DNA from: Phycisphaerales bacterium
Lineage (GTDB): Bacteria > Planctomycetota > Phycisphaerae > Phycisphaerales > UBA1924
Assembly: GCA_965228685.1 (NCBI GenBank)
Contig: CBDDIA010000001.1
Span: 549 to 64,548 of the forward strand
Reading direction: 5' to 3'
DNA: 64,000 nt
Shown here in pieces: positions 718 through 64,000 of the stretch. The position numbers and the translations under genes were made by a program. The notes below the pieces were generated by a model that was not told where the DNA came from, did not search any database, and saw only the letters and a list, made by a program, of their open reading frames with translations. How positions within the stretch are numbered: the stretch's first letter is position 1; every line of letters starts with the position of its first letter.

Positions 718-3700
718 TCAGGCTCGTGCGGGTTGTCCACTTTCGAACCAATCAAGCAGCAGCTTGGCCCGTTGCACCGGGGAGTTTGGCGGCGCGTCGG
801 GTCGGATGTAGATCTCGCACATCGCCCCGCCCGAGCTCGTCCGCGCATTGGTCTGCACGAGCTGCCCCTCCACGACACGGACATTCGCGGGCGCACCCGC
901 GAGACACTCGCGGGCGTGATCCGGGGCGGAGGAGAGGGCGACAATGTCCTTCTCCCGCAGCCCGATCGAGCGGATGTGCAGCGTCTGACACGCCGCCCGG
1001 ACGCGGGCGCGGAGGATCAGACGCCGGACCAGCTCGGGCGGATCGGAATAGGCGCTGGTGATGTCCGCGACGACCAGGTCGATCTGTTCCTGGGTGCGGG
1101 CCGTCGCGAGTCGGCGGTAGACCTCGATCCGGCGGGTGTCGCTCGGGATGTAGGCCTTGGGGATGTACCCGAAGACCCCGATGTCTACGGAGGTGTGCTC
1201 GATCTGCTCGGGGACGCCGTCGTTGGTGAGCTTGTGCACCGTCTGTTCGAGGAGCTGGCAGTACATCTCGTACCCCACCGCCGCGATGTGCCCGGACTGT
1301 TCCGCACCCAAGAGGTTCCCCGCGCCGCGGATCTCCAGGTCCCGCATCGCGATCTTGAACCCCGCGCCGAGCATCGAGTATTCCTCGATCGCTTTGAGCC
1401 GCTTCTGAGCGACTTCCTTGACCGTTCGATCTTCAGGAAGCAGCAGGTAGCAGTACGCGCGATGGTGCGAGCGCCCGACGCGCCCTCGGAGCTGGTGCAG
1501 TTCCGACAACCCGAACCGGTCCGCGTCGTTGATGATCATGGTGTTGGCGGTCGGGATGTCGATGCCCGATTCGATGATCGTCGTCGAGACGAGCACATCG
1601 GCGCGGCGCGACATGAACTCCATCATGACCTTCTCGAGATCGTGCGGGTTCATCTGTCCGTGCCCGATGATGATGTTCGCGTCCGGAACCAATCGGCGGA
1701 TGTTGTCCGCGACGCTCTCGATGTTGTGCACCCGATTGTGCACGAAGTACACCTGCCCCTCGCGTGCCAGCTCGCGCTGAATCGCTCGCGCGATCCGGTG
1801 CGTGTTGTACGGGATCACCTCCGTCACGATCGATCTTCGATCCACCGGCGGCGTCGTCAGGCTCGAGATATCTCGCAGCCCAAGCATGGACATGTGCAGC
1901 GTCCGCGGGATCGGGGTCGCGGACAAGGTCAGCACATCGACCGTCAATCGCAGGCGCAGGAGCTTCTCTTTATGCTCGACACCGAAGCGTTGTTCTTCGT
2001 CGATGATCACCATCCCGAGTTCCGCGAATCGCACATCGTCCGACAACAACCGGTGCGTCCCCACTACTACATCGACGCGTCCGAGTGCGAGGTCCTTGAG
2101 CGTCTGACGGATCTCCGCGGGTGTCTTGAATCGCGATAACGAATCGACCCGGAACGGGTAGTCCGCGAACCGGTTGCGGAAGGTCCGCTCGTGCTGCTCC
2201 GCGAGCACGGTTGTCGGGACAAGCACCGCGACCTGACGCCCAGCTTCCACCGCTTTAAACGCCGCCCGGATCGCGAGCTCGGTCTTGCCGAAACCCACAT
2301 CGCCGCAGATCAGGCGATCCATCGGGCGGGTGGATTGCATGTCCTTCTTGATCTCGATCATCGCCGCGAGCTGATCTTCCGTCTCGTCGTAGGGGAACTC
2401 GGCTTCGAACTCCTGGAACATCGGGGTGTCGCTCGGGTAGTTGAACCCCGGTACATGCTCACGCGCCGCGCGAACCCGGAGCATCTCACTCGCGAGGTCC
2501 TTGACGGACTCGGAAACACGCTCCTTCTGGGCTTTCCATTTCTTACCGCCGATCGAGCTCAGGGGGGGCTTGCCCTTGAACCCGCCGACATACTTCTGCA
2601 CCAGATCGATCTGCGAGCACGGCACATGCAACCGGCTGCGACCCGCGAACTCCAGCGTCAGGTACTCCTCCTGATCTTCTTTCCGCTTCTTTGCCTTGGT
2701 CGGATTGATCGTGTACTTGTCGCGTGTCTTCGCGGTACCCGACGCGTCCATGACCGTGAGCCCGAGAAACTTCGCGATCCCGTGTTCAGCGTGCACGACA
2801 CATAATCGTCCTGCTGGATATCCAGGAAGGTATCCATCGTGCGCCCAGCGCGGATCTTCTGCATCCGTCGCCGGACACTCGAACGATGGAGCATCTGCCC
2901 CGCGGGCACCAGCGCGTAGCGCCCGATCCCCGCGCCCTCGTCGCTGCCGGACCAGATATACCCGCGCCGGATATCAATGATCTCGCGCCGGATATCGATC
3001 CCCGGCGCGTGCAGCGTGAGCAACTCGCCCAATCGCGCGTACTCACCATCTGAACCACACGCGAGGATGATTGTCTCGACTCGGTCCTTAAGCTCCGCGA
3101 GTTCCTTGATTGCGATCGAAACTTCCTTATCGAACGGCGGCAAGGTCTCAACAGGGAGATCGACGAGCGCGTCCGCGCCGGACTTGCCCGCGGAGAACTG
3201 GTTCACCTCGCACAGCGCGTGGAACCGTGTCTCGAGGAGCTTGAGCACGGCAGGCGGCCCGAAGATCGCACGCCCGTCGCTGATCCGCTCGAAGTACCCA
3301 CGCCCCTGCTCGACAACCTCGAAGGTCTCCGCGAGCAGCACGATCGTGTCGCTCGAGAGGTACTCGAGCACGGACTTGTCAGCGCTCGTTGCTTTGAGCG
3401 TCACCTCGCCCGCAGCACCGAGCAAGGCGCGTTCGATCTTGCGATCGGACCCCATCGTGTCCAGATCGATCTCGGCGATGGTGTCGAGCTCGTCGCCGAA
3501 GAAATCGAGACGCACGGGGATAGGTTCGCCACCGCCGCCCGAAGTTGGGTAGATGTCGATGATCCCGCCTCGAGACGCGAACTGCCCGGGATACTCGATG
3601 GTGTCCATCCGCTCGTACCCTGCGCTGACGAGCCAATCGATCAGGGCTTGGGGTTCGATGCGATCGCCCTGGTTGATCTCGCGGACGAGTTCGTCGATGC

Positions 3701-52506: not shown

Positions 52507-53004
52507 TTAGTCGCACTGGATAAACCCAAAGTGCAATCGGCAATGATCAAGATGCAACAGCGTCCATTTCCGATGTGTCATCTTGCCCAGCAGCGGCGAC
52601 GGTTTGGTCATCTGTTCACCCGCATCCAATCGAGCCATCTGCTCGCGGAATCGGGCCATACCGCCCTCGAAATCCTGCTGATCTTCTGGGAGCATGCTCG
52701 AAGCCTTGGCTGGCAGCTTGATGCCCGGTTTCATGTGCGACCTGCCCAGCATGGGTTTGAAGACACTGACCCCCACCATCTTGATGTACCACGGAAAACT
52801 CACCGGCTTGCCCTGTTCATCGAAGAACCCATCCATCGAGAACCGGATCGGGATGGCGCAGTGCTCAAGGATCTGCCCCGCGGACCAGTTGCCGGTGGTT
52901 CGGATCTGACCGGAGGCATGGGCAGACTCGAATCGATCGAGCTCGGCACGGATGTCATCGAGCGTGTGGTAGTCGCGCGGATGCCAGTTTGCTTTTCCTG
53001 CCAT
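52507..53004 (-). CDS. DinB-superfamily protein (DUF1569-like)
   Basis: 165 aa. WSAGQILEHCAIPI and LLHLDHCRLHFGF (His-containing helix-bundle pattern). Confidence 0.6.
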   Translation of the reverse strand: MAGKANWHPRDYHTLDDIRAELDRFESAHASGQIRTTGNWSAGQILEHCAIPIRFSMDGFFDEQGKPVSFPWYIKMVGVSVFKPMLGRSHMKPGIKLPAKASSMLPEDQQDFEGGMARFREQMARLDAGEQMTKPSPLLGKMTHRKWTLLHLDHCRLHFGFIQCD

Positions 53005-53086
53005 GTGACAAAAACTCCTGTAACATCCGAATCCTCAGCGGGCATCGTAGTCCTTCACTGAGATCGATTCCAGACTATTGTTCTGA

Positions 53087-53497
53087 ATGCGACCGAACGG
53101 GATTCTCGAAACGATTCTGTATGTAAATGATCTGGAGCAGGCCTGCTGGTTCTATCGCGAGGTGCTCGGGCTGCGCATGCCGAGGGGTGAGCCATCCTCA
53201 CTCGCGGGGATGTTCCGGGTGAGTGAGCATCAGGTGCTCCTGCTGTTCGATCCGAGCGTGTCTGATCGCCCGGGTCGGGATGTCCCCTCACACGGGGCAC
53301 GCGGGCCGGGGCATATCGCGTTCCAGATCGATCCCGGGACATACGAGGACTGGATCAAACGCTTTGGCATGTTCGGGGTCGCGATCGAGCAGGAGATCGA
53401 GTGGAACGACAACTTCCGCCCCGGGCGATCGATCTATGTTCGCGATCCTTCCGGGAACTCGGTCGAGCTCATCAACGCGGATATCTGGGACGAGTGA
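53087..53497 (+). CDS. VOC/glyoxalase-bleomycin-resistance family protein
   Basis: 136 aa. ILETILYVNDLEQACWFYREVLGL, PGHIAFQI, YVRDPSGNSVELI. Confidence 0.75.
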   Translation: MRPNGILETILYVNDLEQACWFYREVLGLRMPRGEPSSLAGMFRVSEHQVLLLFDPSVSDRPGRDVPSHGARGPGHIAFQIDPGTYEDWIKRFGMFGVAIEQEIEWNDNFRPGRSIYVRDPSGNSVELINADIWDE

Positions 53498-53541
53498 AGA
53501 ATCGAACCCGATCCGCGCGTCGCATCGTATAGACTCTCACT

Positions 53542-54370
53542 ATGAGCACCCCACGAACCATCGCGTCCACCCTCTCCGTCTCCATGCTGATCGCCCTTGC
53601 GGGGGTGCGGCGGCGGGTCCGATTCGGACTCGAAATCCGCAGTGGCACCCGATTACGAAGCCGACACGAGCTATCTCGACGATCTCGCGGCGGACAAGGG
53701 GATCGACACGAGCGATCCTGTCGCGGACGAGCCGATCGAGATCGATCAGACCCAGATCGCCGCGGAACCCGAGAAGACCTACGAGGACGAGGATCGCGAG
53801 TGGGTTGAGGAGGATGGGTCCAAATCCATCTTCGGGCGTTCTCGCGACAAGGCACGCGATCAGCGCAATGCGATCCAGGGGGGCACCGAGCCCGAGAACG
53901 GGATCGCGAACACGACATACGACGAGGAGTACGCCCAGGCTGCGGGGTTCGCGTGGGACATGCCCGAGGACTGGCGCATGGCGGTGCCCAGCTCAGGACA
54001 CTTCGCGGAGATGTTCGTGCAGAACCCGCTGGGCAACGCGAGCGTGATCTTCGAGAAGACAGAATGGAACGCCGCCCAGACCAAGCGTGAGCTGCAGAAG
54101 TACATCATCAGCACCTTCGGGTCCACCGACGCTCGCACGAGTACCAAGAGCGTTCGCGGGTTCAATGTGACGATGTTTGATCTCGAGGGCACCTACATCG
54201 ACCCATCCGGCAAGGGCGGGCGCAACGAGAGCCCGTTCTACGCGATCCATGCGGCGCTCATCGAGCTACCGACCGCGAAGGTGCTCATCCGCATGTGGGG
54301 CCCGCAGGACACGGTGAACCAGAACAAGGCGAAGTTCGACGCCATGATCGAGAAGATGTACGAGAAATAA
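53542..54370 (+). pseudogene. Putative lipoprotein whose signal peptide and mature part are in different frames (1-bp excess in a G5 run at 53601-53605)
   Basis: ORF 53542.. gives MSTPRTIASTLSVSMLIALAG, then nonsense. ORF 53597..54370 begins (L)RGCGGGSDSDSKSAV... Removing one G yields ...MLIALAG|CGGGSDS, a textbook lipobox. The total span of 829 nt equals 276 codons plus 1. Confidence 0.6.
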
Positions 54371-54376
54371 TCTCGA

Positions 54377-55216
54377 TCAGCAGCGAACCAGCTCATCCGC
54401 AATCGCACGCAGCGGCTTCCCTTGGAACCGCTGCGTTTCTCTTTGCGCCTTACGCCCACGCCCGGTCGTCATCCGATCCCACGCGTACGCGACGCGTCCG
54501 AGTTGGTACCGGATCGGGTGCCCGCAGATGTCGGGGTACTTCTTCTCGATCATGTCCCGCTCGGCCTGATACTTGGCGCTCCAGGTATCCGCGGATCCCT
54601 TCGCGTCCTCATGAATGCGGTGCACGCCGCAGTATCGCTCGAGGCGTTTCGCGTTGGTATTCGAGAGGATCCGGTACCAGAGCTCGGTATCCATCACGCA
54701 ATGCAGCGAGCGATCGACGCCTCCCACTCGCTCATACACATCACGCCGAAAGAAAGTACTCGGCTGATGGATCCGCATGTACCCGTACCGCATCCACTGA
54801 CGCGATGGGCCCGCGCGTCGGTCGCAGTGCATGACGCGTGAGTCGCCGTCGACGACGACCGTGTCCCCCTCGACCAAACCCAGCGAGGGATCCGCATCGA
54901 AGCAATCGAGCAGGGCATCGATCGCGCCGGGGAGGAGCGCGTCGTCGGAGTTGAGCCAGGTGATGACATCGCCCGTGGCGCGTGCGAACCCGTCGGCGAT
55001 CGCGTTGCTCTGCCCGCCGTCGGGCTCGGAGCGCCACCAATCGATCTGATCGGCATGCTTCTCGATGATGGCGCGCGACCCATCCGTCGAGCCCGCATCG
55101 AGGACGAAGAACTCCTTGACGCGATCGCGCTGCGACAAAACAGACCCGATCGCCTCTTCGAGGAATCGGGCCTGATTAAAACTGGGCATCACGATCGAGA
55201 GTGTCGCTCGCGCCAT
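54377..55216 (-). CDS. Family 2 glycosyltransferase
   Basis: 279 aa. LSIVMPSFNQARFLEEAIGSVLSQ, LDAGSTDGS, WLNSDDALLPGA. Confidence 0.85.
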   Translation of the reverse strand: MARATLSIVMPSFNQARFLEEAIGSVLSQRDRVKEFFVLDAGSTDGSRAIIEKHADQIDWWRSEPDGGQSNAIADGFARATGDVITWLNSDDALLPGAIDALLDCFDADPSLGLVEGDTVVVDGDSRVMHCDRRAGPSRQWMRYGYMRIHQPSTFFRRDVYERVGGVDRSLHCVMDTELWYRILSNTNAKRLERYCGVHRIHEDAKGSADTWSAKYQAERDMIEKKYPDICGHPIRYQLGRVAYAWDRMTTGRGRKAQRETQRFQGKPLRAIADELVRC

Positions 55217-55240
55217 GCGTTGTCCGTATGAGAGTTGGGG

Positions 55241-55571
55241 TCAGTTGACGCCGAGCAGTTCGATCTCGAAGACGAGATCCGACTTTGCAGGGATCGCGCC
55301 GGGGACACCGCGCTCGCCGTAGGCCTTTGCGTAAGGGATGGTGAGCTTGCGCTTCCCGCCGACCCTTCATGCCGGGGATCCCTTCCTGCCACCCCTGGAT
55401 GAGGTTGCCGAGGGGGAAGTTGATGGACTCGCCGCGGTCGTAGGATGAATCGAAGACGGTGCCGTCCATGAGCGTGCCCTTGTAGTGGACCTCAACGGTC
55501 GCGCCCGAGGGGCACTCGTCGCCGGATCCGACTTCGATGTCTTCGATGATGAGTTCGTTGATGTTGCTCAT
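55241..55571 (-). pseudogene. FKBP-type peptidyl-prolyl cis-trans isomerase with a 1-bp frame break at 55363-55365
   Basis: The frame from ATG 55571 reads [69 protein letters not shown], then nonsense. The next frame reads [40 protein letters not shown]. The coding strand has ATG AAG G GTC. The span of 331 nt equals 110 codons plus 1. Confidence 0.85.
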
Positions 55572-55626
55572 GGGTGTGTTCCTTTCGGTTTGGAGGGGAT
55601 GGTAGACACCCACATTGTGTGTGTGG

Positions 55627-57102
55627 TCAGAGACCGAAATACGCACTGACATACTCAGGAATTGAGGGGGATTTCGTCATCTTCACGACATCCAGCAGAC
55701 GCATCAGATCCCGCTTGGACTTCTCTTCGATCTGGACGGGGTCGATCTCGTCGTCGTCGAGTGTCCGGACGAACCGGTACCTTCGTCCGCCGTCCTCGCC
55801 CATGACACTTATGGGCTCGATCGCGCCGTACTCCGCGAGTCGGATGAGGACATAGTCCATGATCCCGCCGCCCATGCCGTGCGCGTGCCCCTTGCCGATG
55901 ACCATGACGCGGAGATCGTCGGAATCGAAGTCGTCCTCCGTGAATCGCGCCTCGATCGCGCTCATCGCCTGCATCATCAGGTCGGCGCTGGGGTTCTGCC
56001 AGCGGATGAACTCCTGCTGGATCGCGAGGTCCTCTTGGGCGTACAGGAGCTCACACACCGAGTCCTCGCCATCGCGCCCGGCGCGTCCGACCTCCTGGTG
56101 GTACGCCTCGATCGAGCCGGGGATCTGGGCATGGACGATGAACCGAAGATCGGGCTTGTCCACGCCCATCCCGAACGCGTTCGTGGCGCACAGCAGCAGG
56201 TTGTCGTCAGGGGTTGCCTCGATGAACCGTTCGTACACACGCTTGCGTTCACGCGGCGGCAAGCGTCCGTGGTAGATCTCGATGTCGCGCCGGGGTATCG
56301 CCCGTTTGAGCATCCCGGCCATCACCTCGAGGTCCTTGATGAGGGTGAAATACACGATCCCCGTCCCGCCGAGTTCGGCGCTGATCGACTTCACCCGCTC
56401 GATCTTCTCCTTGTCATCCCACACCTCGCGTGCACGCAGGGTCAGGTTCGGGCGATCAACGGGGGCTGCGAACAAGGGCATCTCTTCGTCCGTCATCCCC
56501 AGCACGCGTCGGATGTCCTCGCGGACGGGCTTGGTCGCCGTTGCCGTCAGCGCGATCGTGATCGGCTCGCCCAGCTCCTCGCGGAACTGCCCGATCTTCT
56601 GATACGCGGGGCGCAGGTCGTGCCCCCACTTGGTGACACAATGGCACTCATCCACTGCGAGCAGGTTCACGCCGCCGGGCACCTGCTCGAGCGCTTCGCG
56701 AAAGTCTGGCTTCTCCATCCGCTCGGGCGTCGCGTAGAACAGCTCGTACTCGCCATTCGCCAATCGCTCGTAGCGTTTCTTGCGTTCCTTCTTCCCGACC
56801 GTCGAGTTCACGAACTCCGCGCGGATCCCTTTGGATTTGAGGGCCGCGACCTGATCCTCCATCAGCGCGATCAACGGCGAGAACACCAGCCCGATCCCCT
56901 CGCCCCCGCTCTCCTCGCGCATCGCCAGCGCCGGGAGTTGGAAGCAGAGCGACTTGCCCGACCCCGTGGGCATGACGACCAGCGCGTCACCGCCATCCAT
57001 CACCCGCTCGACGATCTCGGATTGAAGCGGGCGGAGCGAATCGAACCCGAACCGGTCTCGGAGGGTCCGATCGAGCAGCGTTTGTGTATCAGCATCGGGC
57101 AT
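55627..57102 (-). CDS. recQ: RecQ-family ATP-dependent DNA helicase (short form, no HRDC)
   Basis: 491 aa. FRPLQSEIV, MPTGSGKSLCFQLPA, VDECHCVTKWGHDLRPAY, ALTATAT, ATNAFGMGVDKPDLRFIVH, YHQEVGRAGRDG. Confidence 0.88.
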   Translation of the reverse strand: MPDADTQTLLDRTLRDRFGFDSLRPLQSEIVERVMDGGDALVVMPTGSGKSLCFQLPALAMREESGGEGIGLVFSPLIALMEDQVAALKSKGIRAEFVNSTVGKKERKKRYERLANGEYELFYATPERMEKPDFREALEQVPGGVNLLAVDECHCVTKWGHDLRPAYQKIGQFREELGEPITIALTATATKPVREDIRRVLGMTDEEMPLFAAPVDRPNLTLRAREVWDDKEKIERVKSISAELGGTGIVYFTLIKDLEVMAGMLKRAIPRRDIEIYHGRLPPRERKRVYERFIEATPDDNLLLCATNAFGMGVDKPDLRFIVHAQIPGSIEAYHQEVGRAGRDGEDSVCELLYAQEDLAIQQEFIRWQNPSADLMMQAMSAIEARFTEDDFDSDDLRVMVIGKGHAHGMGGGIMDYVLIRLAEYGAIEPISVMGEDGGRRYRFVRTLDDDEIDPVQIEEKSKRDLMRLLDVVKMTKSPSIPEYVSAYFGL

Positions 57103-57179
57103 AGGAGGGGATTATTGCGTCCATCACACGATCCGACGCGCACGATTTGCTTTCGTTGTCGCGTCGCGATACGCTCATG

Positions 57180-57372
57180 ATGTTCAAGGTGCCCGGATTG
57201 AGTTCTCAGCCGGGTGAAAAGGGAAGTGTGGTGAAAAGCCACCGCGGACGCGCCGCCGTAATGGGCAACGAGTCCCGCTCACGCGATGGAACCCATCGCA
57301 GCCACTGGTGCAAAGAGGCATCGGGAAGGCGAGCAGGATACGCCCAGAGCCGGAAGACCTGCCCTGAACGAG
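57180..57372 (+). promoter_or_regulatory. Cobalamin (AdoCbl) riboswitch
   Basis: GTTCA...TGAAC P1. GGTGCC. AAAAGGGAAGTGTGGTGAAAAGCCAC. CGCGCCGCCGTAATGGG. GCCACTGG. GGGAAGGC. B12 box AGAGCCGGAAGACCTGCC. The order and spacing match the RF00174-type consensus as I remember it. No covariance-model scan was run. Confidence 0.85.
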
Positions 57373-57550
57373 TGTTCGACCCTCGCGGCTCTAGGGTGGA
57401 CGGCACGATCGTCGCCTCTCCCCGCGCCGATCCCCGTCTTCATCCCGCATGACCAGCCCAACCGTCGAACGAATGTTCACCGGGGAGTGCCCTGCGCGTA
57501 TCACAGGGCAGACTGGTACGGGCTTCTGTTTTCGCCCAGAAAGATGAGCC

Positions 57551-58397
57551 ATGCGCTCCACACACACACTGTGCGCCGTCATTGCCGGCGCGGTCCTGTC
57601 CACTTCCGCAGCCGCGGACATATTCGCGACGAGCGTCCTGAGCTACGACGCCGGGTCGAACGCGGCTGCGGGATACACCACCGCTGCTGCTGCGCTCGGG
57701 TCTGCCGAACGCTTCACCGGCGAGGGCGTCTTTCCCCGGCGGTGTCACCCCCTTCAACCCCGCGTTCGGCACGGACGAGCTTGTCTCCGTCGGATCGGGC
57801 GGGCACCTGACCCTCGGGTTCGATTCGACGATCACCAACAGCGCCTCGCACGCGTTCGGGATCGACCTGATCGTGTTCTCTAACTCCGGGTTCCTGGACA
57901 CATCGTGGTCCGACGCGGACCCGAGCAACGACGGCACCGGGCTCGTCGGATCCAACCCATTCGTCTTTGGTGCCGGCGGTGAAGCAACCATCCAGGTCTC
58001 ACAGAACGGTACCGACTGGTTCACAGCCTCGATCACCACACTCGACCTGTTCCCGACACTCGGGTTTTCTGACTTCACCGAGACCACCCCGGGCGCACCG
58101 GGGCTCGTGGAGTCAAACTTCGCCCAGGCGATGGACCCGACCCTCGCATTGAGCGACTTCGCGAACCTGACCTTTCGCGGAGATCGTCGCGCTCTACAAC
58201 GGATCGGGGTGGCGGGATCGGGATCGACATCGCGTCCACCGGGCTCGAGTCTGCGAGCTATGTCCGGTTCCTCAACGAATCGGGCGAGGCATTCGAGATC
58301 GACGCCGTCGCGGTGGTCCCCGCGGCCGGGTGTCCTCTTCATGCTCGGGCTCGGGGGTATCTTCGCAACCCCGCGCCGGCGCGCACGCCACGCGTAA
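57551..58397 (+). pseudogene. Secreted PEP-CTERM-anchored protein, first gene after the B12 riboswitch, interrupted by four 1-bp frame breaks
   Basis: The signal peptide MRSTHTLCAVIAGAVLSTSAAA is in the frame of 57551. Skipping one base at each of 57734-57737 (C4), 58173-58175 (T3), 58206-58209 (G4) and 58324-58327 gives a continuous 280-aa protein. It reads ...GEGVFPGGVTPFNPAFGTDELVSVGSGGHLTLGFDS...LTFAEIVALYNGSGGGIGIDIASTGLESASYVRFLNESGEAFEIDAVAVVPAPGVLFMLGLGGIFATPRRRARHA and ends in a PEP-CTERM-like sorting signal. 847 nt equals 281 codons plus 4. Confidence 0.7.
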
Positions 58398-58477
58398 CCC
58401 TGCCCTCATTCGCACGCCGCCCCCTCTCTGGCGTGCGATCGCGCTGGCGTCCGTGAAACACCGGACGCTGCGCATTC

Positions 58478-60023
58478 ATGAACACGAACCCATCCATCGC
58501 AATCGCGTCGTTGATGATTGTCTCGTCCACGCTCTGTGCACAGCTCGCGGTCGAGCACACCCCAACGCACGCGCCGACACCAGTTGACGGAAGCGGGATC
58601 TGGACGCACTTCACGGGCAACGCAATGCGGAACACGGTGCCGAGTGTCGCGATGATGCCGTCGCTCGAAACCCCCTCGTGGGTGAACACCGACCATGTCC
58701 CCGTTGCACAAACCGGTCTCGTCGTCGATGATCGCCATATCTACGCGATGACCGTGGAATCCGGAAACACCTACTTCGCGGTTGCGCTCGATCGCGTATC
58801 AGGCGAAGAGATCTGGGCATCACCGATCGCGCCGGTCATCCTCGATTCGTGGTCGTCCCCCGCGCTCGACATCGAGCATGGCACCCTGATCATCGCGACC
58901 GGCAGCACCATCGTCGCACTCGACATTACCACCGGCGAGCAGGTCTGGTCGCACACGCTCAGCTCTACGATCGTCAACGCATCACCGGTCGTCACCAATG
59001 ACCTCGGCGATCGCGATCGCGTGCTGATCACCAACTACTCGTTTGGAGGGCTCGGCAACGCACAGCTCATCTGCATCAACATCGATCCGTTCAACGCGGA
59101 CACCAACCCCTATCACCCGGGCGATCTCGTCTGGGCGAAAAACCTCGGCGCCGACTCATCGGGGAACACACCCGCGTACCAGAGCGGGCGGGTGTACCTT
59201 GCGACGGCGAGCAACGGGAGCGGTTCACGCGGCACCATCCGCGGCTACGACATCACGGAGGATGTCGCGCCGGCATCGCCGCTCTGGTCGTTCACCAACA
59301 CGATCAACGCCGGGTTCTTCGGCGGCGTGTCGATCGCCAAGGGGCACATCTACGCGAGCTCATACTCGTTCAGTGGGTTGCAAACCAGCGCCAACACCGT
59401 GAAGCTCAACAAGAACACCGGCGCACTCGTCTGGTCCGTCTCCACCAACCGCACCGACGCGACGCCCATCGTCCTCCCCAACGGCGATGTCATTGTCTCC
59501 GCGGGCGTGGCGCAGGGCGTAAACCAACAACATCCCATTCTTCGGCACCATCCCCAGCATCTCCTACATCGATGACGCAGGTTCATCCGCGATACTCGCG
59601 TGGGATTCCTTCCTCGAGACCCACGACGACACGAACACCAACGGGTTCTGGGATTTCGGCGAGTCGTACCTCTCCATCGGCGGGTGGACGCATCAACCGA
59701 TCGCGATCAGTGTGAACAACATCCCGCACCTGCTTGTCGGGACGCTGCCACTCAACTCGCCGGTTTCGTACATTGGGAACAACACCGACCTACGCCTGAT
59801 CGACCTCACCAAGTCCCCCACCGATGCGGGGTTCATTGTTGATCATGCAACGGACACCGGGAACACCCCTGCGATCGCGTCTGGGTGGATCTACTCCGGG
59901 TCCGATGAAGGCATCAAAGCATTCGCACGGCCGTCGTCGCTGCTCGCTGTCCGTTCGCTCGTCGATCGTTACACCCGCGGCGAGCTCACCCTCCACGAAC
60001 TGCTGGAGCGGCTCCCTAGATGA
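58478..60023 (+). pseudogene. Secreted PQQ-like beta-propeller repeat protein with one 1-bp frame break at 59521-59523
   Basis: ORF 58478..59575 has a signal peptide (MNTNPSIAIASLMIVSSTLCAQ) and repeated blade motifs (IYAMT...ALDRVSGEEIW; IVALDITTGEQVW; VKLNKNTGALVW). It ends in nonsense after ...VSAGVAQGV. The next frame continues (T)NNIPFFGTIPSISYIDDAGSSAILAWDSF... into ORF 59712..60023. 1546 nt equals 515 codons plus 1. Confidence 0.7.
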
Positions 60024-60835
60024 CCAACGCCCAGCGTCCATCACGGGGATTCACGCTCATCGAGCTGCTGGTCGTCATCGCGATCATTGCGCTGCTCGTC
60101 GGGATCTTGCTCCCCGCGCTGTCGCACGCACGCGACTCGGGCAAGGCGATGGTGTGCGCGTCGAATCAGCGCCAGCTCATCACCGCGTTCACGATGTACA
60201 CGGACGACCATCGCGGGTACGCGATGCCGCACCTCTACGCATCGGGGATCACGCGCACCTACTGGTACGGGCGAGAGAACATCGCGACCCAAGCGCTCGA
60301 TCACACGCTCGGCACACTCACGCCCTACCTCTCCGCGGCACCGGGTGATCGATCGGTCTTCGAGTGCCCCGATCAGCCCGAGGGCTCGTACCACACGCAG
60401 GGATCGACCGGGTCGTACACCTCGACATACGGGTACAACGCGTACGGGCTCTCGCCCAACACATCGGGATACTTCGAGCTCTACAACCAGCGGACGCTCA
60501 CGCTCGCGCAGATTGATCGCCCGTCCGCCCAGCTCGTGTTCGCCGACGCGATGATCGTGCTGTTCTCGGGACAACCCTCAAACTCCGCGCTGCTCGACCC
60601 GCCCATGCTCTATGCGCCCAACTCCGGATGGCGCGAGAACTTCTCCCCCACCACCGCGTTCCGTCATCATCGACCCGATGTCGGGTTCGGCAAAGCGTTC
60701 ACTGCTCGCGCGGACGGGTCCGTGCTCTTCGATGTCCACGACCCCGACGCACGCAACATCGAACTCCACGGTATCGGATCGATCGCGTCCGACAACGACC
60801 CGAACTATGTCCAGCGCATGGAGAGGTGGCGCTGA
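60020..60835 (+). CDS. DUF1559 protein with prepilin-type N-terminal cleavage/methylation domain
   Basis: 271 aa. SRGFTLIELLVVIAIIALLVGILLPALSHARDSGKAMVCASNQRQL. ATGA overlap with the propeller gene stop. Confidence 0.85.
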   Translation: MTNAQRPSRGFTLIELLVVIAIIALLVGILLPALSHARDSGKAMVCASNQRQLITAFTMYTDDHRGYAMPHLYASGITRTYWYGRENIATQALDHTLGTLTPYLSAAPGDRSVFECPDQPEGSYHTQGSTGSYTSTYGYNAYGLSPNTSGYFELYNQRTLTLAQIDRPSAQLVFADAMIVLFSGQPSNSALLDPPMLYAPNSGWRENFSPTTAFRHHRPDVGFGKAFTARADGSVLFDVHDPDARNIELHGIGSIASDNDPNYVQRMERWR

Positions 60836-61059
60836 TGTTCGTCGATCGATGCGTTTGCTTGAAGGTTCCGTTCAGACTCCTCGATCAGATCGTGGAGAAC
60901 GAGCACGATGTCGAGACCGAGACCATCGAATCGATCTTCGAAGCGCTCCAGAAACGCACCAAGTGCTCCACGAACTGCGGCATGTGCCGCCCGTACATCC
61001 TCCGCATGATCGAAACCGGGCAGACTAGCTTCGTCCCCTTCCCGCCCAACCAGCGCTGA
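60835..61059 (+). CDS. BFD-like (2Fe-2S)-binding domain protein, 74 aa
   Basis: TGATG overlap with the DUF1559 stop. MFVDRCVCLKV...KCSTNCGMCRPY gives the C-x-C...C-x3-C-x2-C cysteine pattern of bacterioferritin-associated-ferredoxin-like domains. Confidence 0.65.
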   Translation: MFVDRCVCLKVPFRLLDQIVENEHDVETETIESIFEALQKRTKCSTNCGMCRPYILRMIETGQTSFVPFPPNQR

Positions 61060-61077
61060 CGCCCATATCATCCGGGT

Positions 61078-61809
61078 ATGAACGACACGATTAAGACCAT
61101 GCGTGCGCACCGCTCGATCCGCATCTTTAAGGACGAGCCGATCCTCCAAGATCACATCGAGCAGGCGATGCTCGCGGGGCAGGCCGCCGCGACGAGCAGC
61201 GCCGTGCAGCCGTACTGCGTCATCCGCGTTACGGACGACGACACCCGCCAGCAGATCGCCGATCTCGCCGGGCCACAACAGAAGGTCCGCGATTGCCCCG
61301 CGTTCTTCATCATCTGTGCCGACCTGCGCAAGCACAAGCTCATCACCGAGCGTACGGGCAGCACGCACATCACCTCGCTCGAAGCCTTCCTCGTCGGCGC
61401 GGTCGACGCGTCGCTCTTCGCACAGAACTTCGTCCTCGCGCTCGAGTCCCTCGGGTACGGCACATGCTACATCGGTGGGATTCGCAACGATCTGCCGCTC
61501 GTCGACAAGCTCCTCAACCTCCCGCAGGGCGTGCTCCCGCTTTACGGGCTGTGTGTCGGTCTCCCTGATCAGGACCCGGCGCACCGCCCGCGTCTCGCGT
61601 CATCCGCGATGCTCTTCGAGGACCGGTACCCCGACGACGAGACCACGCTCGCGCAGATCGACGCGTACGACGAGGAGTACAAGCAGTACCTCTCCGATCG
61701 CGGCGCCGAGCCCGCGACCTGGTCGCAGGCCATCGCGAACCGGTTTTCATACGCCAAACGCCCGGGGCTGCGTGCGTACTACGAATCCAAGGGTGTTTCG
61801 CTCGATTAA
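61078..61809 (+). CDS. NfsA-like oxygen-insensitive NAD(P)H nitroreductase/flavin reductase
   Basis: 243 aa, alignable by eye along its length to E. coli NfsA. HRSIRIFKDEPI, FFIICADLRKH, YIGGIRNDLPLVDKLLNLPQGVLPLYGLCVGLPDQDP, RPRL. Confidence 0.85.
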   Translation: MNDTIKTMRAHRSIRIFKDEPILQDHIEQAMLAGQAAATSSAVQPYCVIRVTDDDTRQQIADLAGPQQKVRDCPAFFIICADLRKHKLITERTGSTHITSLEAFLVGAVDASLFAQNFVLALESLGYGTCYIGGIRNDLPLVDKLLNLPQGVLPLYGLCVGLPDQDPAHRPRLASSAMLFEDRYPDDETTLAQIDAYDEEYKQYLSDRGAEPATWSQAIANRFSYAKRPGLRAYYESKGVSLD

Positions 61810-61829
61810 CTCCGGAGTCCATCAAAACC

Positions 61830-62345
61830 ATGAAGCACGCACTCTTTATCATCATGCTCGTCGCGGGGATCACGACCCTTGCTCTTGCTCAGCCCACCAG
61901 ATCGCCACGCGACACGGGCGGCACACGCGTGATCTATGTCGTCCGCCATGCGGAGAAAGCATCGGGCCCTGACCCGGTGCTCTCCGAGCAAGGGCACACC
62001 CGGGCCGATCGGCTCGCCCAGATGCTCAAGCACGAACCATTGAGTGCCGTCTTCGTGACCGATACGAACCGATCTCGCATGACCGGCTCGCCCAGCGCGG
62101 AAGTGCACGCGATCGAGACCACAACTTACCCCGCGACCGATCCGCACGCCCTTCGCTCGAAGATCGAAGCGCTCCCGCACGAATCAAACGCGTTGGTGAT
62201 TGCACACTCCAACACCGTCTCGCTGATTCTTGAATCGCTTGGCGCCCAATCCATAGGCGATCTCCCCGAGGACGAGTACACGCGTGTATTCGCCGTCGTC
62301 CTTCGCGACGGGTCGCATATCCGCACGCTCAATCTCTCGTACTGA
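61830..62345 (+). CDS. Histidine phosphatase superfamily (SixA/PGAM-like) protein with signal peptide
   Basis: 171 aa. MKHALFIIMLVAGITTLALAQ signal, VIYVVRHAEK (RH catalytic motif), LVIAHSNT. Confidence 0.75.
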   Translation: MKHALFIIMLVAGITTLALAQPTRSPRDTGGTRVIYVVRHAEKASGPDPVLSEQGHTRADRLAQMLKHEPLSAVFVTDTNRSRMTGSPSAEVHAIETTTYPATDPHALRSKIEALPHESNALVIAHSNTVSLILESLGAQSIGDLPEDEYTRVFAVVLRDGSHIRTLNLSY

Positions 62346-63293
62346 TCACCGATCTTCCCAGAACAGTCGCCCACCCTCGTAATCGAGCGTCACGCGATCG
62401 CCGACGAACAATCCGGATCCGACATTGCCCACAAGGTTCTCGATCGGAGGCCCGCCGCCGGGTGTCGTCATGAACAGCACGCGTGATTCATCGATCTCCA
62501 ACTTGCCGAGCATGGCGTGCGCGAGGGGCGCGGTACGCAGATCGAACATCACGCCATCGATCCCCATGCCCTGACCGGCTACTTGTTGATCCGGGTCGTC
62601 CGCATCAACCAATCCCAACGCGTCCGCCTGCTCATGATCAACCTCGATCGCATAGGTCGCGCCCAGATCGAGCAGGAAGTTCCCCACGACGGGCTTGGTC
62701 TTCTTCCCCATGAGCATGGGCGTGACCTGCCCCTCGAAGTACGGGAACCCCATCGCGATCTTGATCTGCATCACCTTCGCATCCTCGGGCATCTCGTACG
62801 CGTCACGACCCGTGAGCACGAGCTCGCCCGATCCATAATCGATGCTCGTCATGTAGCGCTCGATCAACGACGCGCCGAGGAACCCCGCGACGCGCTTGCC
62901 GTTGAACGCAGGCAGTTCCGCCGCATCGGGCAGCACCGTCACCATCGCGTCCGTGAACGACAACAGATCGCCCGACGCGCCGAGCGACACATGCACATCG
63001 CTCGCCTGCTCGACCGTCAACGAGCCCGACCCCGCGCCGCCCATCTCACCGAGCGGTTTCGTCTCAATTCCAACGTCCGCCGCGACATACGCGAACATCG
63101 TCGTGTTCTGATTCCCCGTATCGAGCACAAACCAGTACGGCCCATCCCCCTCGATCCACACGGGCAACACGATGTGCCCCGTCGCGGTATCGATCTTGAT
63201 CGTTACGGGTTCCTGCGCCGTCCTCGGGGTTGGTTCGCCCCCACTGCCCACAAGGCACACACTCAGGATCAATGATATCAACAACGCGGGCAT
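62346..63293 (-). CDS. Secreted retropepsin-like aspartyl protease, two tandem half-domains
   Basis: 315 aa. N-terminal signal MPALLISLILSVCLVGS. First lobe WFVLDTGNQNT (D-T-G). Second lobe NFLLDLGATYAIEV (D-L-G). Confidence 0.6.
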   Translation of the reverse strand: MPALLISLILSVCLVGSGGEPTPRTAQEPVTIKIDTATGHIVLPVWIEGDGPYWFVLDTGNQNTTMFAYVAADVGIETKPLGEMGGAGSGSLTVEQASDVHVSLGASGDLLSFTDAMVTVLPDAAELPAFNGKRVAGFLGASLIERYMTSIDYGSGELVLTGRDAYEMPEDAKVMQIKIAMGFPYFEGQVTPMLMGKKTKPVVGNFLLDLGATYAIEVDHEQADALGLVDADDPDQQVAGQGMGIDGVMFDLRTAPLAHAMLGKLEIDESRVLFMTTPGGGPPIENLVGNVGSGLFVGDRVTLDYEGGRLFWEDR

Positions 63294-63401
63294 AGGCCTC
63301 TCCTTTGGGGAGGGAGGATGCGCTGGGGTTGGAGGTCTGTCAGGATTACGACATCAATATGCGAGTTCTTCTCTTGGGAGAGCTGCATCTCCCAGATGGG
63401 T

Positions 63402-63431
63402 GCCCTGCTTTGACCCGAAGGGCAAAGCAGG
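63402..63431. repeat. REP-like palindromic hairpin, left copy
   Basis: GCCCTGCTTTGACCCGAAGGGCAAAGCAGG forms an imperfect hairpin (CCTGCTTTG / CAAAGCAGG arms around CCCGAAGGG). Its exact reverse complement is at 63971-64000. Confidence 0.65.
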
Positions 63432-63438
63432 TTCCCAC

Positions 63439-63954
63439 CTACCAATCCCGCCTCAATGGAACAACACCAGACTCACCCGCGTAATCTGGCGCCGAAGACC
63501 ACACCCAATCCGAAGGATTCACAACAAGCCCACGCCGAACAGGATTCCGATGGATATATTCGATCTTCTCTCGGATATCACTCTCACTCCGCAGGTTCCG
63601 GTCATACCCGCCCCCGCGTTGCCAGAACAACGCTCGCCCATGCGGCCCAACAAGTTGTCCAAGAATCGGCGCATCCTCTCGTCGATATCGTTCGATCATC
63701 TCACGCCCGAACCCCTGCTTGAGTCCACGCAAGACCCCGCTGATCTTCCCATCATGAGGCACGACGATCAGGTGCACATGATCCGGCATGATCACATACG
63801 CGATGACATCGAACCTTAACCGCACGGATTGGTTCGCGATCTCGTGGAGATACAGGTCTCGAGTATCAGGTGTGTTGAGGAGGGGAAGTCGATCGAAACA
63901 GGAGTAGGTCAGGAACCGGGCTTGGTTCGGGATATCGTAGTGTTTGACTGGCAT
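63439..63954 (-). CDS. REP-associated tyrosine transposase (RAYT; IS200/IS605 TnpA-like HUH enzyme)
   Basis: 171 aa. HUH motif AYVIMPDHVHLIVVP and catalytic-Tyr helix IEYIHRNPVRRGL. The size is typical of RAYTs. Confidence 0.85.
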   Translation of the reverse strand: MPVKHYDIPNQARFLTYSCFDRLPLLNTPDTRDLYLHEIANQSVRLRFDVIAYVIMPDHVHLIVVPHDGKISGVLRGLKQGFGREMIERYRREDAPILGQLVGPHGRALFWQRGGGYDRNLRSESDIREKIEYIHRNPVRRGLVVNPSDWVWSSAPDYAGESGVVPLRRDW

Positions 63955-63970
63955 TTGGTATCAACAGGTT

Positions 63971-64000
63971 CCTGCTTTGCCCTTCGGGTCAAAGCAGGGC
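63971..64000. repeat. REP-like palindromic hairpin, right copy (inverted)
   Basis: CCTGCTTTGCCCTTCGGGTCAAAGCAGGGC is the reverse complement of 63402-63431. The window ends here. Confidence 0.65.

Follow-up and report, generated by a model that had tools for sequence, protein, structure and literature searches.

The window, a 64,000-nucleotide stretch of contig C1 from a draft genome of a Phycisphaerales bacterium (62% G+C across the window), carries towards its right end a forward-strand operon headed by a cobalamin riboswitch. In the deposited sequence, the region behind the riboswitch, 57551–58397, holds two open reading frames (ORFs) that overlap out of frame, 57551–57883 (110 aa) and 57873–58397 (174 aa). 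The features of the operon, as predicted here, are:

57170–62345, forward strand: the operon, comprising the riboswitch, a PEP-CTERM-like protein, a secreted PQQ_2-type beta-propeller, a prepilin-type N-methyl (pseudopilin-like) protein, a 74-aa ORF, an NfsA-type nitroreductase and a secreted histidine phosphatase
57170–57380, forward strand: cobalamin riboswitch aptamer at the head of the operon (RF00174; 88.1 bits against a gathering score of 31.5)
57551–58397, forward strand: a single gene for a secreted PEP-CTERM-like protein of 280 aa, divided into two ORFs by four extra bases (three-frame translation and orthologue alignments)
58317–58394, forward strand: PEP-CTERM-like sorting tail of that protein, consisting of VPAPG, a hydrophobic helix and RRRR, read in the final frame (near misses to TIGR02595 and PF07589)

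Three-frame translation of 57551–58397 yielded one coherent protein along the frame path 0>1>2>0>1, with no in-frame stop codons after read-through. The alignment partners for this DNA were six orthologues, all intact and of the same genus, and the contig L054, which comes from another sample and an unrelated sequencing run and is 92.4% identical over window positions 52549–63396. Relative to this set, the region showed exactly four single-nucleotide length differences, all of them +1 insertions and each within or beside a short run (2–4 nt):

57731–57737, forward strand: site 1, TTTCCCC here; TTCCCC or TTTCCC in the relatives, that is, one T or C fewer in all
58173–58175, forward strand: site 2, CCTTTCG here, with the extra base in or beside the TTT run; TT or a shifted TTT in the relatives
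58206–58209, forward strand: site 3, TCGGGGT here, with one surplus G; GGG or TGG in the relatives
58324–58325, forward strand: site 4, CGCGGCC here; a single G in all relatives (CGC-GCC)

A one-site pattern scan recovered the shorter form of site 4 in two metagenome contigs with matching flanks. The earlier note, made from the letters of the window, had located frame changes at 57734–57737, 58173–58175, 58206–58209 and 58324–58327, and these places were borne out by translation and by the alignments with the six orthologues and L054; its observation that three shifts inside 155 nt restore the original frame likewise holds, with sites 2–4 spread over 155 nt and summing to +3. The note had also proposed that removal of one base at each site creates a 280-aa ORF that starts with a signal peptide and ends with a PEP-CTERM-like tail, and this repaired ORF indeed matches intact relatives at 93–95% identity: the figures are 93%, over the full length, for the intact ORF of genome G022 and 95% for protein P0001. 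Identity to the intact ORFs of five further genomes (G008, G016, G007, G002 and G004) is 82–89%.

More than 100 homologues were found, mostly in marine Phycisphaerales metagenome-assembled genomes, and each is a single ORF or protein of 270–285 aa; all 13 genes on L054 are intact. That the short ORFs might prove to be real, separate genes once orthologues were consulted was a possibility raised by the note, and ORFs of 110 and 174 aa do exist in the record. However, every relative has one ORF at this position, and the 110-aa ORF in its tail and the 174-aa ORF in its 50 middle codons are translated out of frame and have no homologues there, whereas the three-frame path matches at 93–95%. We consider it almost inconceivable that these are distinct genes. 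By comparison with its relatives, 57551–58397 is one gene whose deposited record contains four breaks.

The read-through protein begins with a predicted signal peptide (MRSTHTLCAVIAGAVLSTSAAAD...) and ends in ...VPAPGVLFMLGLGGIFATPRRRARHA. An N-terminal signal peptide combined with a C-terminal motif, hydrophobic helix and Arg cluster recalls the PEP-CTERM/exosortase protein-sorting system, reportedly described by Haft et al. in 2006, and the genome encodes two exosortases (PF09721; 168 bits on contig C22 and 145 bits on contig C15) together with many further PEP-CTERM-like tails. Unlike in PEP-CTERM proteins, the motif here is VPAP rather than PEP, and the tail falls slightly under both HMM cut-offs (TIGR02595, 14.9 bits against 16; PF07589, 12.7 bits against 20.7). 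The body of the protein matched no family in Pfam or NCBIfam, and a PDB-sequence profile search returned nothing meaningful. An AlphaFold model of the 95%-identical orthologue P0001 (m2a1af8a7e7de; pLDDT 62, pTM 0.64) predicts a beta-sandwich core. Its top Foldseek match, and the only one with E <0.001, was 8BLW_B (E 8e-5, TM 0.34, rmsd 14 Å), a match to a moderate-confidence model that may be due to chance; the next matches were weak and to CBM32/discoidin-like sandwiches.

Probing the window with intact ORFs of three relatives, followed by nucleotide alignment, uncovered frame breaks in other genes as well:

2799–2802, reverse strand: +2 insertion (duplicated TG) that splits mfd (compared with G016 only)
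53601, forward strand: +1 insertion in a G-run of an upstream 275-aa hypothetical gene (compared with L054; frame switch relative to G022)
55363–55365, reverse strand: +1 insertion, GGG on the coding strand, in an FKBP peptidyl-prolyl isomerase gene (three relatives and L054)
59520–59523, forward strand: +1 insertion, AAA, in the downstream 514-aa PQQ-like beta-propeller gene at 58478–60023 (three relatives and L054)

In the 10.8 kb around 57551–58397, comparison with L054 revealed that coding sequence contains seven 1-nt insertions that break the frame and zero 1-nt deletions. The AAA insertion at 59521 is the sole non-terminal indel of the 1.5-kb beta-propeller gene relative to three relatives, and mfd (1147 aa) is 91–94% identical to its G016 counterpart. 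Among the broken genes of this patch, recQ (1.5 kb) and a GT2 gene, which lie between them, are unbroken. In non-coding DNA, length differences of 1–2 nt from L054 occur at 57205, 57529, 58425 and 61824, one of them inside the riboswitch aptamer, and could be natural variation or additional errors. At the window edge, an ORF on the reverse strand (63402–64000) encodes PDHVHLIV and YIHRNPV motifs, which by translation resemble an IS200/IS605-like or RAYT-type transposase.

Genome-scale comparison placed these breaks in a wider pattern. This genome (38 contigs, 3.34 Mb, 91% completeness) was compared with 470 kb of the complete relative genome G008, and at least 31 frame switches were detected in around 88,000 aligned residues. 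An unfiltered pairwise count of indels (86 insertions and 80 deletions) suffered from noise where ORF extensions diverge and was replaced by one restricted to 1–2-nt indels with well-aligned flanks, which covered 255,630 aligned nucleotides and gave 30 insertions and 13 deletions, several of the deletions lying in non-coding ORF extensions. A reverse control, with ORFs of this genome compared against G008 DNA, largely reproduced those events; since a frame remains similar after a shift, this control gives no polarity on its own. In the case of the window genes and folP, polarity was read with third and fourth genomes as references, and 12 of 12 polarised events were insertions, each against at least two to three references apart from mfd, which was polarised against G016 alone.

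The insertions are unevenly distributed. At the genome mean rate (30 per 255,630 nt), 0.10 insertions would be expected in 847 nt; four were seen (Poisson P around 4e-6). At the rate of the local patch (7 in around 5.9 kb), the expectation is about 1.0 and the probability of four or more is about 0.02. The densest regions are:

Contig C1, 54–60 kb: insertion patch
Contig C13, 30.3–34.0 kb: insertion patch with 10 insertions, in the last 4 kb of the contig
Contig C13, 31310–32225 (locus L052): folP (dihydropteroate synthase), in four pieces, with four 1-nt insertions in around 0.9 kb (alignment with relatives)
Contig C19, 2.6–11.1 kb: insertion patch

The density of breaks at 57551–58397 is the highest in the window, as the note had remarked, but the hotspot is not unique to it genome-wide: folP, a single intact ORF in G008, G022, G016 and G004, is broken at equal density on another contig. 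Also broken are lepA, a gene for a mannose-1-phosphate guanylyltransferase and others. The guanylyltransferase gene carries two clean 1-nt deletions, around 1 kb from the end of C19. The extent of the defect, which reaches neighbouring genes, folP and lepA, all intact in relatives, means that the breaks are not special to 57551–58397.

Proximity to contig ends was a further common element. Per contig, counts ranged from zero insertions in 24 kb (C11) and few in 42 kb (C32) up to 11 in 25 kb, and 22 of 33 insertions lay within 10 kb of a contig end, compared with 30% of the aligned sequence (nominal binomial P 2e-5, which is overstated as the events are clustered). The enrichment persists when patches are considered, at both ends of C1, the end of C13, both ends of C19 and the start of C25. 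Contigs with frame-breaking insertions near their ends are C1, C13, C19, C25 and C38. The four breaks in the PEP-CTERM-like gene lie 5.7–6.3 kb inside the right-hand end of C1. A cell is blind to the points at which an assembler stops, and dependence on contig ends is thus, among the internal signs, the strongest that the cause is technical.

These observations bear on whether the gene is genuinely decaying. In a very recent pseudogenisation, the insertions here and in folP, lepA, the FKBP gene, mfd and other genes would be real, for example in a mutator or bottlenecked lineage. The extra bases do stand in the deposited sequence, mfd, a repair factor, is itself broken, and homopolymers are natural indel hotspots, although the affected runs are merely 2–4 nt long. 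Because DNA identity to the closest relative is only around 92%, a change specific to this strain and of very recent date could still have taken place. Yet such decay would entail the joint loss of essential or housekeeping genes, with four breaks in folP and a broken lepA, in a 91%-complete genome, and enrichment at contig ends is a property of an assembly, not of a cell. The signatures of decay at the sequence level are also missing: dN/dS between the read-through gene and the six orthologues, with the four inserted columns omitted, is 0.07–0.15, unchanged from the 0.08–0.18 among the intact orthologues, and nonsense codons are absent. Decay in bacterial genes is deletion-biased, whereas all polarised events here are insertions. 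As biology, four independent inactivating hits without relaxed constraint, or simultaneous multiple hits in folP and lepA, would be very improbable, and we judge recent pseudogenisation to be unlikely.

The bases could also be real in a more restricted manner, as clusters of +1 changes recently acquired in patches of a few kilobases, or coexisting as a sub-population, with bursts that inactivate the B12-regulated operon, folP and other genes. Such bursts might arise, in a background deficient in mfd, from patch synthesis that is error-prone or from recombination with damaged DNA. We searched for the extra-base alleles elsewhere. An exact look-up in a collection of 15 billion proteins found the truncated beta-propeller product from this 64,559-nt contig only and did not find the other two fragment ORFs; with this genome's own records left out, no contigs encoding the truncated propeller product were found, and a two-site pattern scan of metagenome contigs for the extra-base alleles gave no match. 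The fragment-ORF look-up, the encoding-contig search and the metagenome pattern scans turned up no second, independent assembly of this strain. We rate real insertion bursts as very unlikely.

Recoding or programmed heterogeneity, whether by +1 ribosomal frameshifting, by slippage during transcription or by phase variation of a surface protein, would be in keeping with the predicted surface location of the product, the +1 direction shared by all four shifts and the recovery of frame by three shifts within 155 nt. The direction is also that of the programmed +1 frameshift of the prfB type; unlike in that system, there is no in-frame stop at the site, no conservation among orthologues and no similarity between the four contexts, which have no motif in common. 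Nor is there a slippery-site feature or a rare-codon pause at the sites: the old frame remains open for 48 codons past site 1 and to the end of the gene past site 2. The shift is conserved in 0 of more than 100 homologues, and like breaks occur in cytoplasmic housekeeping genes. Slippage and contingency loci need runs far longer than 2–4 nt, and homopolymers of around 7 nt or more, expected of a phase-variable contingency locus, are not present at the sites, where runs are 2–4 nt. Recoding is therefore an extremely improbable account of the four shifts.

By contrast with these alternatives, technical error would explain both the composition and the distribution of the breaks. We regard the four frame breaks as very probably errors of the consensus, single bases inserted in a draft assembly that is inaccurate in patches. 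Sequencing or assembly error was one of three options that the note had offered, choosing none; it is now strongly supported, also by the occurrence of the truncated propeller product in this one contig only, while several tests contradict decay and several contradict recoding or heterogeneity. The unbroken recQ and GT2 genes inside the patch count against it. Each error would consist of one surplus base, mostly a copy of its neighbour in a short run, that remained in a low-quality patch around 4–10 kb from the right end of C1, and such patches may stem from read support that is thin or poorly polished, for instance in long-read or flow-based data. The combination of a duplicated neighbouring base, an insertion bias and patches of a few kilobases near contig ends would fit a thinly covered or unpolished long-read or flow-based consensus.

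Assemblies of this kind have precedents. Indel errors in draft, long-read or flow-based assemblies create artificial pseudogenes, as Watson & Warr reportedly described in Nat Biotechnol in 2019, and the present genome resembles such cases in having single-base indels in or beside short homopolymers, many unrelated broken genes, essential ones included, with intact relatives, and clustered errors that are worse where read support is thin, as at contig ends. It differs from nanopore consensus sequences in its bias: nanopore errors are more often deletions, whereas this assembly is insertion-biased. Under consensus error, the true gene would most likely be one intact 280-aa ORF, the first in a cobalamin-riboswitch-controlled operon, and its product would be a secreted, exosortase-sorted (PEP-CTERM-like) beta-sandwich protein.

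The genomic context of the gene is conserved. A cobalamin riboswitch lies 5′ of the orthologue in 13 of 13 genus-level loci and in 3 of 3 loci from other families of the order (16 of 16 in total), and homologues in three other families of the order are 39–43% identical. The operon contains none of the classical B12-regulated genes. BluB was rejected as an identity for the operon nitroreductase, which scored far below the BluB cut-off and matched NfsA above the NCBIfam cut-off, and a confident assignment of the histidine phosphatase to CobC was also rejected. There is a parallel with the BtuG/BtuH-type surface corrinoid-binding proteins of Bacteroides, in that both systems combine a cobalamin riboswitch operon with secreted or surface products that include a beta-propeller, and the top Foldseek match is a chain of the Bacteroides thetaiotaomicron BtuB1–BtuG1 vitamin-B12 uptake complex (8BLW). 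In contrast to those proteins, there is no sequence similarity, the structural match is weak and the operon here is without a TonB-dependent transporter. Given its riboswitch and secreted products, the operon may reasonably be guessed to act in the capture or processing of corrinoids at the cell envelope. A literature search for work joining cobalamin riboswitches with PEP-CTERM found only unrelated reactor-community work.

As biology, the frame breaks carry little weight; they are, on our reading, not a feature of the organism. They serve as a quality warning for this genome, in the sampled part of which around one frame-breaking indel occurs per 6–9 kb of coding sequence, concentrated in patches near contig ends, and signals of pseudogenes, split genes or recoding in it should be treated as suspect pending a check of the reads. 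The biological interest resides in the underlying gene, which belongs to a conserved, uncharacterised Phycisphaerales family situated directly behind a cobalamin riboswitch in all 16 loci examined and which may participate in corrinoid capture at the cell surface.
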